Shown: positions 6,150 through 47,098 of the stretch, piece by piece
How positions within the stretch are numbered: the first letter of the stretch is position 1
How the letters are laid out: each line of letters starts with the position of its first letter
Notes under the pieces: model-generated
Seen by the model: the letters and a program-made list of their open reading frames with translations, nothing else
The model's database searches: none
Told to the model about the DNA's origin: nothing
Made by a program: the position numbers and the translations under genes
From: Gemmatimonadales bacterium
GTDB taxonomy: Bacteria > Gemmatimonadota > Gemmatimonadetes > Gemmatimonadales > GWC2-71-9
Length of the DNA: 64,000 nucleotides
NCBI GenBank assembly: GCA_025934955.1
Contig: JAICWE010000001.1
Location: 1,736 to 65,735, forward strand
Reading direction: 5' to 3'

Positions 6150-6638
6150 CTACTGAACCGTGATCTTGCCCTTCATGCCGAGGGCCTGGTGCGGCAGGCA
6201 GTAGAAGTGGTAATCGCCCTTCGGCGCACTCGCCGCGAACGTCACGGTGTAGGTGGCGTTCGGCTCCGTGAGGAGCGGCGACGCGAGCGGACCCATCGGA
6301 TCCGGCATGTTGATGGCGCTCTGCGCGCCCGAGGGGATGCTGTCGGGATAGAACTGGACGTTGTGCGGACCGCCGCTCACATCATGGAAGACGACCTGGT
6401 CGCCCGCCTTGATGGTGATGTCGGAGGGGTCGTACTTGTACGTCGTGCCGACGAGCTCCATGTTCACATCGTGCTTCGCGCCGCCCGTCGCGGGCGCCGC
6501 GGCACCACCACCGGCCGGCGCAGCCGCCGCGGCAGCGGAGGTATCGGCCGGCTGCGCCGCCCCGCCCGCCTTCTTCTCGCCACCACCACACGCCGCCAGG
6601 ACGAGGGCCAGCCCCGCCACCATGCTCGTCACGCGCAT
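6150..6638 (-). CDS. Plastocyanin/azurin-family blue copper lipoprotein
   Basis: Lipobox LAAC, Ala/Gly-rich linker, type-1 Cu ligands GPHNV and YCLPHQALGM. Confidence 0.9.
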   Translation of the reverse strand: MRVTSMVAGLALVLAACGGGEKKAGGAAQPADTSAAAAAAPAGGGAAAPATGGAKHDVNMELVGTTYKYDPSDITIKAGDQVVFHDVSGGPHNVQFYPDSIPSGAQSAINMPDPMGPLASPLLTEPNATYTVTFAASAPKGDYHFYCLPHQALGMKGKITVQ

Positions 6639-6792
6639 TGCCGCTCTGCCTCCAGTCAGGTGATCTCTCGCCCGTGCGCACACGGGACCTCCCCGCCGCC
6701 GGGCCACCCCTGTGGGTCCCCATGCGGTCGCCAAGTATATATTCAGCCCTTCCCAGCCGGTAGCTCGCGTTGCCACCACGGTTTCCATTTCG

Positions 6793-40409: not shown

Positions 40410-41962
40410 CACACGCCCCACAGGTAGATGTCGTTCAACGAGCTCGCCTCGAGGTGATCGGCGTGGTGCAGCTTGTTGAGCGCGTTCACCAGCGCCCGCG
40501 CGCTGGCCTCGACGATGTCGGTGCTGGCGCTGTGGGCGGAGAACGTCTTGCCGTCGATCCGCACCTGGAGGAACACCTGGCCGACGCTGTCGCGGCCCGG
40601 CGTCACCGAGCGGAGCGAGAGACTCTCGACGTCCACCGGCCGGCCCACGATCTCCGCCACCGCGTTGAACGCCGCCGCGATCGGCCCGTCACCGCGTCCC
40701 GTCGCGGTCCGGTCACCGGGCCACGGTCCCGTCATCCGCGCCTCGGCGGTGGCGCTGCCGCTGCCGCAGCTCACCGTCAGCTCGCTGAACGCGTACGTCT
40801 CCGGCGCGTCCTGGAAGCTGTCGTGCAGCAGCGTCAGCAGGTCCTCGTCCAGCACGGTCCGCTTCCGCTCGGCGAGCGAAATGAAATCGGCGTAGAGGAC
40901 GTCGAGCTGCTGATCGTCCAGTTCATAGCCCAGTTCGCGATAGCGCCGCGCCAGGCCGTGCCGGCCGGAGTGCCTGCCGAGCACCAGGCTCGAGCGCGCG
41001 ATGCCGACGGTTTCGGGTTGGATGATCTCGTACGTCTCGCCCCGCTGCAGCATGCCATGCTGGTGGATGCCGGCCTCGTGGGCGAAGGCGTTGCGACCGA
41101 CCACCGCCTTGTTCGGCTGGGGGAAGCTGCCGGTGAGGTGGGAGAGGAGCTGGCTGGTACGGTACAGCTCGCGCGACTCGATGCGGCAGCGGAAGCCCAG
41201 CGCCTGCGGCCGCACCCGGCCGGCCATGACGATCTCTTCCAGGGCCGCATTGCCCGCCCGCTCGCCGATGCCGTTGATCGTGCACTCGACCTGACCGGCA
41301 CCCGCTTCGATGGCGGCGAGACTGTTGGCGACCGCGAGGCCGAGGTCGTCATGGCAGTGTGCGCTGAGGACCACGCCGGCGGCGCCGGGCACGCGCTCCC
41401 GCACCGCGCGGAACATCGCGGCGTACTCCTGCGGCGTCGCGTACCCGACGGTGTCGGGGAGATTGACCGTCGTGGCGCCGGCCGCGATCGCGGTCTCCAC
41501 GACGCGACTGAGAAAATCGAGATCGGTACGGCTCGCATCCTCCGCGCTGAACTCGACGTCGTCGGTGAAGCGGCGGGCGCGCCGTACGCCGTCGCGCACC
41601 AGCTCGAGCGCGGCGTCACGGGTGATGCGGAGCTTCTCGCGCAGGTGCAGATCCGAGGTTGCGGCAAAGACGTGGATCCGGCCGCGTGCGGCGCCCCGGA
41701 GCGCGTCGGCCGCCAGATCGATGTCGCGCTCGCGGCAGCGGGCCAGCGCCGCGATCACCGTCCCGCGGATCTCGGCGGCGATGGCGCCGACCGCACGAAA
41801 GTCGCCCTCGGACGCCGCCGGGAAGCCCACCTCCATCACGTCCACGCGCAGCGTCTCGAGCTGCCGCGCCAGGCGCAGCTTCTCCTCCGGGGCGAGACTG
41901 TTGCCCGGCGACTGTTCGCCGTCGCGCAGCGTGGTGTCGAAGATCAGGACGTCCCGGCTCAT
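40409..41962 (-). CDS. leuA: 2-isopropylmalate synthase
   Basis: DTTLRDGEQ, HCHDDLG, NGIGERAGN, HEAGIHQ, C-terminal regulatory domain. Confidence 0.96.
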   Translation of the reverse strand: MSRDVLIFDTTLRDGEQSPGNSLAPEEKLRLARQLETLRVDVMEVGFPAASEGDFRAVGAIAAEIRGTVIAALARCRERDIDLAADALRGAARGRIHVFAATSDLHLREKLRITRDAALELVRDGVRRARRFTDDVEFSAEDASRTDLDFLSRVVETAIAAGATTVNLPDTVGYATPQEYAAMFRAVRERVPGAAGVVLSAHCHDDLGLAVANSLAAIEAGAGQVECTINGIGERAGNAALEEIVMAGRVRPQALGFRCRIESRELYRTSQLLSHLTGSFPQPNKAVVGRNAFAHEAGIHQHGMLQRGETYEIIQPETVGIARSSLVLGRHSGRHGLARRYRELGYELDDQQLDVLYADFISLAERKRTVLDEDLLTLLHDSFQDAPETYAFSELTVSCGSGSATAEARMTGPWPGDRTATGRGDGPIAAAFNAVAEIVGRPVDVESLSLRSVTPGRDSVGQVFLQVRIDGKTFSAHSASTDIVEASARALVNALNKLHHADHLEASSLNDIYLWGV

Positions 41963-42007
41963 CTGCGGTGCTCCTTGCGCCTCTGCGCCGTGCCTCTGCA
42001 TGGGTCG

Positions 42008-42047
42008 AAAAGCAAAGGCGCCGCGGACCGATCGGTCCGCGGCGCCT
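42008..42047 (-). terminator. Attenuator terminator of the leu-ilv operon
   Basis: Perfect inverted repeat AGGCGCCGCGGACCG-AT-CGGTCCGCGGCGCCT followed by TTGCTTTT on the minus strand. Confidence 0.9.
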
Positions 42048-42072
42048 GGGAACTGCTGACGAGTGCTGCTCT

Positions 42073-42168
42073 CTATGCTCGCCCTGGCACGCCGCGGAAC
42101 CCCTGCCGCCCGATAAGAAGGACGACGAGGAGATTGGTAAGCGCGAGCGCGAGGAGAACGAGCGTCAT
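42073..42168 (-). CDS. Leu/Val/Ile-rich attenuator leader peptide MTLVLLALALTNLLVVLLIGRQGFRGVPGRA
   Basis: Manual translation: 9 Leu, 4 Val, 1 Ile in 31 aa; between promoter and terminator upstream of leuA. Confidence 0.88.
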   Translation of the reverse strand: MTLVLLALALTNLLVVLLIGRQGFRGVPGRA

Positions 42169-42228
42169 GATCGGGTGTCGGTCCGGCCAGTTGGTGATGA
42201 AGACTTATGCAACCGATGCTGGTTCCGC

Positions 42229-42257
42229 AGGATAGGCCGCAGTGCGCGCCGTGTCAA
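42229..42257 (-). promoter_or_regulatory. Sigma70 promoter of the leu-ilv operon
   Basis: TTGACA-N17-TATCCT. Confidence 0.75.
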
Positions 42258-42282
42258 GAGTGGGCCGTGCCGATCCCGACTC

Positions 42283-42311
42283 TTGACGCATGCAGATTTC
42301 CGCATAATAAT
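42283..42311 (+). promoter_or_regulatory. Sigma70 promoter of gltB
   Basis: TTGACG-N17-AATAAT within the AT-rich CATAATAAT. Confidence 0.6.
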
Positions 42312-42320
42312 GCGTTCGCC

Positions 42321-42407
42321 ATGCCGAATGTGACGCGACCGACCTGCCCGAATACCAAGCTTCTCAAGAAGCTTATCGTCGCCCGCCCCACGGGAGCGAC
42401 CGGGTAG
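42321..42407 (+). CDS. Candidate gltB leader peptide MPNVTRPTCPNTKLLKKLIVARPTGATG
   Basis: ATG about 10 nt after the -10 box; cluster of AT-rich codons; 3' end complementary to the downstream terminator arm. Confidence 0.6.
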   Translation: MPNVTRPTCPNTKLLKKLIVARPTGATG

Positions 42408-42433
42408 CAGCGCGCGCAGTGCAGGCGGCACCC

Positions 42434-42469
42434 GGGCCCGCTCCCCTGAACGGAGCGGGCCCTTTCGTT
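42434..42469 (+). terminator. Intrinsic terminator in the gltB 5' leader (attenuator)
   Basis: 11-bp stem GGGCCCGCTCC/GGAGCGGGCCC followed by TTTCGTT, about 60 nt before the gltB ATG. Confidence 0.75.
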
Positions 42470-42526
42470 GGCCCACCGCCGACCTCTCCGGCCGGCCGGG
42501 CCAACCCGACAACCGATGGAGGCACC

Positions 42527-47098
<4,572 letters not shown>

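Follow-up and report, generated by a model that had tools for sequence, protein, structure and literature searches.

How is glutamate synthase controlled in the Gemmatimonadales? The question is raised by the region ahead of gltB in a 64,000-nucleotide stretch of DNA from a Gemmatimonadales bacterium (hereafter the window; positions 1,736 to 65,735 of contig JAICWE010000001.1, GenBank assembly GCA_025934955.1), where a promoter, a short open reading frame (ORF), and an intrinsic terminator precede the gene. To our knowledge, glutamate synthase and nitrogen genes are under protein regulators (NtrC, GlnR, TnrA/GltC, AmtR, NtcA, Lrp, and ArgR) in every system studied, and we know of no gltB leader peptide. 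Comparison of the sequences suggests that the region is a ribosome-read leader-peptide attenuator of gltB transcription which most likely reports the charging of tRNA-Asn, a reading to which we assign a probability of about 0.65.

The classical leader attenuators of amino acid operons are those of trp, his, leu, thr, ilv, and pheA in enterobacteria. The gltB leader resembles them in its short, apparently translated ORF, in its intrinsic terminator and rival antiterminator, the 5' strand of which would be covered by a ribosome that reaches the ORF end, and in candidate regulatory codons for a single amino acid. A preliminary description of the locus had listed the promoter, the near-leaderless 28-codon ORF, the 11-bp terminator, and the complementarity of the ORF end to the terminator, and every coordinate matched on a sequence check (Table 1). 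The 216-nt leader folds with -106.3 kcal/mol (z = -4.61), a stability equalled in none of 200 shuffles, and the terminator hairpin has a predicted energy of -22.0 kcal/mol. A consensus scan of positions 41500-43000 finds two promoter-like sites (0.0 in shuffles) and two terminators (0.4 in shuffles).

To compare relatives, the upstream regions of 40 gltB loci were read: that of the window, eight from a DNA search, two from named metagenome-assembled genomes (MAGs), and 29 that were fetched in addition. L009 (in the unpublished genome G013, with no GltB match), L015 (a second copy of the place of L005), and the short spurious DNA matches L010, L011, L013, L014, and L016-L019 were left out. The first tally of the DNA search includes the unpublished G013 and the covariance-model tallies include the unpublished G176, while the aligned sequences, peptides, and named examples come from neither. 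The unit of ORF and terminator is present at 37 of the 40 loci, which belong to the same Gemmatimonadales family, and these 37 span 23 numbered genera plus the two named MAGs. The ORF stops 22-31 nt ahead of the terminator arm in the 37 loci, the terminator sequence is nearly constant (GGCCCGCUCC-loop-GGAGCGGGCC-U-tail), and relatives have a TTGAC-N17-TAWWWT promoter in the matching position. This conservation is the decisive control, and it indicates that the arrangement of the leader is not a matter of chance.

The unit is missing at three of the 40 gltB loci (L113 in G076, L126 in G084, and L128 in G045). At L113 (G076:C27) the promoter and the palindromic box that overlaps it are kept, and the ORF has four codons (MHNQ) and stands alone, with the terminator absent ahead of gltB; this leader is apparently degenerate or simplified. 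Two covariance models were used, R1 for the leader unit and the broader R2. R1 matches 32 of 61 genomes of the family, and in two sister families it matches one of 62 (the weak match L172, ahead of a different gene) and none of 27. A second R1 match in the genome of the window (C33) is an ordinary gene-end terminator.

The alternative pairings at the heart of the switch are conserved along with its parts. Segment 3 can pair with segment 2, at the end of the ORF, to form the antiterminator or with segment 4 to form the terminator, and in the alignment of the 37 sequences (A1) no block of the leader is better conserved than segment 2. The antiterminator occupies columns 37-43:93-99 and 45-49:86-90 of A1, where 88.5% of 444 cells are paired and six of the 12 pairs have changed on both sides. 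Its covariation score was reached in none of 500 shuffles, and sliding the partner strand by 1-3 columns lowers the paired fraction to 41-59%. The terminator is paired in 94.9% of cells, with both-side changes in five of ten pairs. Individual substitutions follow the same pattern. In L008, where A has become G in segment 2, segment 3 has the corresponding U-to-C change and segment 4 has gone from A to G. In L118, segment 3 has changed from G to A and both of its partners from C to U. In L002, the C-to-U change of segment 3 goes with G-to-A in segment 2, and a G-U pair is retained with segment 4. A three-way constraint (2:3 pairing, 3:4 pairing, and coding) predicts just such a terminator, one that hardly varies over at least 23 genera. 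The antiterminator that the preliminary description had drawn from the 3' end of the ORF, exclusive of the terminator, is thus borne out by the pairing and the six both-side-changed pairs. The proposal of a ribosome-mediated attenuator likewise gains support from the comparison, since the ORF is conserved and both stems are kept with covariation.

Both RNA states were folded with ribosome-sized masks, and the nascent RNA was ended before segment 4 for the test of 2:3 pairing. When the mask lies on the Asn codon discussed below, segment 3 is predicted to pair with segment 2 in all 37 leaders; when it covers the stop, 34 of 37 leaders form the terminator. In silico, then, the modelled switch is real. 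Without a ribosome, segment 3 still pairs with segment 2 in 30 of the 37 RNAs that lack segment 4. Small 1:2 hairpins are present, yet 2:3 pairing is preferred to this extent, and the anti-antiterminator familiar from trp is predicted to be weak. The trp/leu-type geometry that had been proposed is supported for the terminator and antiterminator, with a 1:2 stem that looks weak. In the window, segment 1 would be GUCGCCC, possibly a weak anti-antiterminator; its equivalents in relatives are CCGCUCC or CCGGnnnnUCCC. In the minimum free energy fold the ORF end pairs with CUGCCCG, and the AAT codon at 42351-42353 follows immediately on the 3' side of this stretch. Because 2:3 pairing forms in these 30 leaders without a ribosome, the default state looks like read-through, and the simplest model from the folding looks like one in which termination requires a ribosome at the ORF end. 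An untranslated leader of this kind should read through, whereas a classical attenuator super-attenuates.

In its coding behaviour the ORF resembles a translated leader. At 14 curated leaderless loci it measures 66 to 84 nt from ATG to stop (22-28 codons), always a multiple of three. The stop keeps its position in the 37 leaders while its identity changes (TAG in 26, TAA in six, TGA in five). In the 30 nt around a conserved Asn position, AAY trinucleotides occur 47 times in the ORF frame and two times and once in the other frames. Two start types are found. In the first, the ATG lies 5-9 nt past a -10-like hexamer (the window and 13 further curated loci); in the window the distance from the AATAAT box is 9 nt, so that the mRNA would be leaderless or nearly so from the predicted start site. 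In the second, a 5' untranslated region of about 50 nt carries a purine-rich GGGTGG, GGTAGG, or GGAGG a few bases ahead of an ATG or GTG. The Gemmatimonadetes have an entry among the anti-SD types tabulated in PMC10783764.

These features bear on the idea that a ligand or an RNA-binding protein sets the switch, as in a riboswitch or a protein-dependent antiterminator, and that the ORF is incidental. Whole-codon length changes, a stop that varies in identity at a kept position, and two conserved start types are hard to reconcile with an incidental frame, even though open frames are common at 71% GC. A conserved and unexplained AGCG(Y)G right after the stop would suit such a switch, but there is no conserved unpaired core besides the three pairing segments and no Rfam family near threshold. 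A scan of positions 41900-42700 against Rfam at E values up to 10 gave chance-level matches only, the best with 19.6 bits against a gathering threshold of 41.2. Among the Rfam leader families Thr_leader alone is listed at the gltB leader, with 14.4 bits against 55 (E = 8.1), and these families have no sequence match to it. We consider a switch set by a ligand or protein very improbable.

The stop codon has a peculiarity of its own. TAG ends 26 of the 37 leaders, compared with 29% of the long ORFs of the genome, and CG(Y)G usually comes next (window 42405-42413; A1 columns 50-62), a motif for which the pairing segments do not account. A TAG followed by C-G might slow release. This over-use, together with a conserved C-terminal G-A/S-x-x-G/R before the stop, could point to an arrest peptide resembling TnaC or SpeFL that senses glutamine, glutamate, or 2-oxoglutarate in the ribosomal tunnel and halts the ribosome on or close to the stop codon. 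RNA pairing, including its compensatory changes, nevertheless accounts fully for the conservation of the C-terminal codons, and a ribosome held at the stop would favour termination only. The remaining peptide is highly variable. An arrest peptide is accordingly a far-fetched explanation. A functional small protein is also disfavoured because the peptide is poorly conserved outside its last six codons, which are RNA segment 2.

Which residue would the ribosome-read leader sense? Within the zone from codon -17 to codon -9 ahead of the stop, 45 of 333 residues are Asn (13.5%), compared with 1.83% in the long ORFs of the genome, and apart from the rare Cys no residue comes near this 7.4-fold enrichment. 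At least one Asn falls in this zone in 28 of the 37 leaders. With one leader per genus, the count is 17 of 25 where 15% is expected (binomial 4e-9). The leader Asn codons are AAT and AAC in a ratio of 40:14, and AAT makes up 15% of Asn codons in the genome. Leaders usually have one or two candidate regulatory Asn codons. The Asn codon either abuts segment 1 on its 5' side or stands two codons ahead of it, while neighbouring codons vary freely. A ribosome stalled there would leave segment 2 free. The leader of the window has two AAT codons, at -18 and -26, the former just outside the zone. The preliminary description had placed the stall in the stretch KLLKKLI (42357-42377) and had suggested sensing of Lys, Leu, Ile, or Asn tRNA; Asn survives the comparison, being conserved and enriched, and KLLKKLI is found in this genome only among the 37 leaders. 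The palindrome AAGCTTCTCAAGAAGCTT that encodes most of it is absent from the other 36 leaders compared and reads as an insertion relative to them.

The genes asnS and gatB and several asnB-family genes of the glutamine-hydrolysing type score over cut-off in five of five genomes. Since asnS is present in all five, Asn-tRNA is presumably charged directly from free Asn. The transamidation route to Asn-tRNA by GatCAB, which would have made the leader a direct glutamine sensor, was set aside for this reason, and gatB most simply serves Gln-tRNA.

The same scaffold stands before other genes. Twenty-eight covariance-model matches other than the top ones were fetched. Two are gltB leaders (L189 and L198), 17 are Asn leaders ahead of other genes, four are other or unresolved leaders (L172, L192, L194, and L197), and five are plain terminators or unclear (L170, L188, L191, L193, and L196). 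For L183 and L195 the peptide was taken from the sequence by eye and not by script. The 17 Asn leaders have one to five Asn codons each and share the same terminator. Behind them lie a PII gene followed by an ammonium transporter gene (L184; Pfam P-II and Ammonium_transp), an activator of the GAF-sigma54-HTH type that NCBIfam matches best to NifA (four loci in four genomes of one genus), porins (four loci, of TorF/Gcw_chp and OmpL-like types, that of L195 being porin-like by its signal peptide alone), and an HAD-IB phosphatase (eight loci in eight genomes). Asn recurs three to five times in the leaders of the porins, the NifA-like activator, and the PII-ammonium transporter pair; example peptides are MLLACNSNINNVNRPYWGAER with five Asn, MLPVNRNLMNDANRPGTGAER and MMIHAATRRTNNSRCWNNRFR with four each, and MRTRRLNDRVSNSPDAPLQGSGGNR with three. 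At L173, L176, and L177 (G101, G011, and G200), the porin genes adjoin those for a class-III aminotransferase, a PotD/PotF-like binding protein, and a DAO-type oxidase, a set that looks like polyamine or amine catabolism.

Leaders with other residues serve as internal positive controls. At L192 (G252:C136) a leader with seven Cys codons on the same scaffold precedes genes for APS kinase and PAPS reductase. The genome of the window has a Phe/Trp/Tyr-rich leader (MAHPTNFWFFYFTNPG...) ahead of a prephenate dehydratase-ACT-DAHP synthase gene; this ORF, MAHPTNFWFFYFTNPGAARAAFGAGRVR, and its terminator make up a predicted aromatic amino acid leader. Because such Cys and Phe leaders, and a Leu leader beside gltB described below, match their own pathways, the enriched residue can be read as the sensed residue. 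A Thr-rich leader (TITTTLT) with the same terminator scaffold lies ahead of an ArgE/DapE-type deacylase gene at L197 (G014:C231).

Several observations weigh against a leader specific for Asn. The two Asn codons of the leader in the window are separated, with no codon run as in the his and leu leaders. Nine of the 37 leaders have no Asn in the -17 to -9 zone, and L004, L007, L101, and L107 have none in the last 20 codons; L101 and L107 lack Asn altogether, L004 has two Gln codons instead, and L021 has Asn at codon 2 only. The Asn background of 1.83% is drawn from this genome alone, and the sequences are related, so that the shuffle and binomial figures overstate significance and independence. 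No Asn leader was seen ahead of the asnB-family copies of the genome, which sit inside other gene clusters, or ahead of its asnS, and its amtB-glnK locus (C107) is without such a leader. The antiterminator is moreover the fold preferred without a ribosome in 30 of 37 leaders, and if it is the default fold, any slowing of translation, and not a shortage of Asn alone, would give read-through. As a separate result, a genome-wide scan for short ORFs with at least two Asn codons and a strict terminator returned none among 43 candidates at 176 terminators, under criteria by which the gltB leader itself scores one Asn only.

The preference for the antiterminator in folds without a ribosome is also an argument for an attenuator that is not specific for Asn and instead gauges how closely the ribosome follows the polymerase, responding to general translation or to any starvation, with Asn and AAT merely acting as slow timing codons. 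The leaders without Asn in the zone fit this view as well, and so does the G+C content at third codon positions, which is 0.72 in the leaders and above 0.8 in the background long ORFs and suggests generally slower codons. Against it, Asn is the sole residue enriched 7.4-fold and is repeated in the porin, NifA-like, and PII-ammonium transporter leaders, and the pathway-matched Cys, Phe, and Leu leaders argue that the scaffold is used in an amino acid-specific manner. A general gauge of translation is therefore unlikely, although it is the most credible of the alternatives.

If the leader reports tRNA-Asn charging, the following course of events is envisaged. Transcription would begin a few bases ahead of the leader ATG, and a ribosome would load once the 5' end emerges. 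Smooth translation to the TAG would place the ribosome on the last codons (GGGAGCGACCGGG) while the polymerase makes the terminator; the covered ORF end could not pair with CCCGG...CGCUCCC, the 11-bp terminator would form, and gltB would be off. A ribosome delayed at the Asn codons, which are mostly the rare AAT, would leave the ORF end free to pair with the 5' arm of the terminator, and with the terminator blocked the polymerase would continue into gltB. If an asnB homologue makes Asn from aspartate and glutamine, each Asn would consume one amino group derived from glutamate together with the amide of one glutamine. A drop in Asn-tRNA could then plausibly serve as a late sign that nitrogen is scarce, and read-through would raise glutamate synthase as well as, among the relatives, the uptake of ammonium and further genes linked to nitrogen.

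Table 1. Coordinates of the gltB leader and its parts in the window, with one further leader elsewhere in the same genome
Feature	Position	Strand	Description
Sigma-70-type promoter	42283-42311	+	-35 TTGACG 42283-88, 17-nt spacer, -10 AATAAT 42306-11; 10/12 consensus matches
Palindrome GCATAATAATGC (GYAT-N4-ATRC)	42302-42313	strandless	Overlaps -10 box; candidate ARG-box-like operator
Leader ORF, 28 codons + TAG	42321-42407	+	ATG 42321, stop TAG 42405-07, predicted peptide MPNVTRPTCPNTKLLKKLIVARPTGATG
Asn codon AAT, codon 3	42327-42329	+	Candidate regulatory codon
Asn codon AAT, codon 11 (18 before stop)	42351-42353	+	Counterpart of conserved Asn position
Perfect 18-bp palindrome AAGCTTCTCAAGAAGCTT	42357-42374	+	Codons K-L-L-K-K-L; small hairpin in fold
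GUCGCCC, candidate segment 1	42378-42384	+	Pairs with GGGAGCGAC in free-RNA fold
Segment 2, GGGAGCG-A-CCGGG	42392-42404	+	GGGAGCG 42392-98, CCGGG 42400-04; last four sense codons; antiterminator 5' strand
Segment 3, CCCGG-GCC-CGCUCCC	42431-42445	+	CCCGG 42431-35, CGCTCCC 42439-45; pairs with segment 2 (antiterminator) or segment 4 (terminator)
Intrinsic terminator	42434-42469	+	GGGCCCGCTCC / GGAGCGGGCCC 42434-62 and tail TTTCGTT 42463-69; 11-bp stem, 7-nt loop
Second hairpin	42470-42502	+	CCUCUCC mid-hairpin; between terminator and gltB
gltB ribosome-binding site and coding region	42518-47098	+	GGAGG 42518-22, ATG 42527, stop 47098
Leaderless aromatic leader ORF MAHPTNFWFFYFTNPGAARAAFGAGRVR and terminator	G000:C72 ~6583-6721 (L180:284-370; outside window)		Ahead of fused prephenate dehydratase-ACT-DAHP synthase

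A strong promoter and a strong terminator that bracket a stable structure could also mark the gene of a trans-acting small RNA of about 150 nt, with or without a small protein, for which control of gltB would be secondary. There is a precedent in rnTrpL of Sinorhizobium, a terminated trp attenuator RNA (PMC7968998). The 57 nt from the tail to the gltB ATG (42470-42526) leave no room for a separate gltB promoter, however, and the unit always stands directly upstream of its target gene, at the 37 loci and at the paralogues. As the main purpose of the unit, a small RNA has little to recommend it; as a by-product it is compatible with the attenuator and not a replacement for it.

Within these 57 nt lies a second hairpin, GGCCTCTCCGGCC, which is kept in the window, L002, L003, L020, and L101, with close variants in L021 and L100, so that its conservation is limited to the nearest relatives. 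Its CCUCUCC is complementary to GGAGG and could mask the gltB ribosome-binding site, adding translational control.

The promoter may carry a further layer of regulation. ArgR acts on gltBDF in Escherichia coli through ARG boxes, and the palindrome GCATAATAATGC, which overlaps the -10 box of the gltB promoter, is probably an ArgR-type operator that would add arginine repression of gltB. The pattern GYAT-N4-ATRC with an A/T-rich centre has three sites only in the 3.05-Mb genome, those at the gltB and argG promoters and one elsewhere. The argG site, GCATATTTATGC (G000:C70:14549-14560), lies at the -10 region of the leaderless argininosuccinate synthase gene. The exact box is found at the gltB promoter in 26 of 37 relatives, and five of 37 have two boxes 20 bp apart. 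Genes with an ArgR C-terminal domain (PF02863) score over cut-off in five of five genomes, at least two per genome. The E. coli case is similar in that an AT-rich palindrome overlies the glutamate synthase promoter, here shared with the argG promoter, and in that some relatives have tandem boxes about 20 bp apart; the box here reads GYAT-N4-ATRC. The preliminary description had pointed out that gltB is normally under protein factors. The ARG-box-like palindrome suggests that protein control, if ArgR does bind there, operates alongside the leader.

GltB of the window is a glutamate synthase large subunit of 1523 amino acids (NF008730, E=0), and its gene is monocistronic, the next gene being on the opposite strand. 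The gltD-type small subunit (TIGR01317) scores over cut-off in none of five gltB-bearing genomes, and because it falls below cut-off in all five, glutamate synthase here may be a single-subunit form. Distribution of gltB is patchy: a query with the N terminus of GltB matches 38 of 121 sampled genomes of the family. The genome of the window is 3.05 Mb long with 71.2% G+C.

On the other side of the gltB promoter, a divergent promoter on the minus strand (42257-42229) drives a Leu-rich ORF of 31 codons (42168-42073). This Leu/Val/Ile-rich ORF, MTLVLLALALTNLLVVLLIGRQGFRGVPGRA, is followed by a 14-bp terminator (42047-42016) and TTGCTTTTCG, and ORF and terminator precede leuA-ilvB-ilvN-ilvC-leuC. 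The unit at 42168-42016 on the minus strand is a predicted branched-chain amino acid leader attenuator. Similar peptides and terminators occur at 16 of 35 related loci with a readable flank.

The gltB leader departs from classical attenuators in several ways beyond its default state. The sensed residue appears to be Asn; the target belongs to nitrogen assimilation instead of to the biosynthesis of the amino acid that is sensed; and the candidate regulatory codons number one to four and are often non-adjacent, with one subgroup of leaders being apparently leaderless. No described leader for Asn is known to us, and no gltB or Asn leader is described in the open-access literature searched.

Further published parallels come from mycobacteria, where leaderless polycysteine short ORFs form the 'Cys ribulon' (bioRxiv 10.1101/834739). 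The gltB leader is like these in its apparently leaderless, putatively sensory short ORF and in that several unlinked operons seem to share one sensed amino acid, by which the ribosome would coordinate a regulon. The output here would be an intrinsic terminator and not the unmasking of a ribosome-binding site, and nitrogen assimilation is the pathway, with Asn as the residue. One relative also has a Cys-rich leader of the present scaffold, at L192. In Mycobacterium tuberculosis and in homologues elsewhere, the attenuator of ilvB1 (PMC13236596) combines a leader peptide containing regulatory codons with a Rho-independent terminator in a high-GC bacterium. It differs in its branched-chain codons and biosynthetic target, and its counterpart in the window is the leuA-ilvBNC leader and not that of gltB. 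The accessible portion of PMC13236596 names gltB solely as a hit in CRISPR interference.

The gltB leader is predicted to belong to a set of leader-peptide attenuators that extends across the family and has within it an Asn class linked to nitrogen. Tentatively, and at somewhat less than even odds, the family may use the ribosome to run a share of its nitrogen regulon, an 'Asn ribulon' in which tRNA-Asn charging signals nitrogen status. The set would comprise glutamate synthase, the PII-ammonium transporter pair, the NifA-like sigma-54 activator, the porins, and the HAD phosphatase, each gated independently on the shared scaffold, and it might act beside or instead of the sensing of glutamine and 2-oxoglutarate by PII and NtrBC. 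If the attenuator reading is true, Asn would be a new sensed amino acid for attenuation, and the logic would also be new, using as a proxy for nitrogen status an end-product amino acid that draws on amide as well as amino nitrogen. The exchangeable codon sets (Asn, Cys, Phe, Leu, and possibly Thr) on one scaffold would provide a test bed for the evolution of attenuator specificity, and the scaffold offers a way to annotate regulons of uncultured bacteria from sequence alone. For the Gemmatimonadota, a common but little-studied soil phylum, the leader would be the first proposed regulatory mechanism for nitrogen metabolism.

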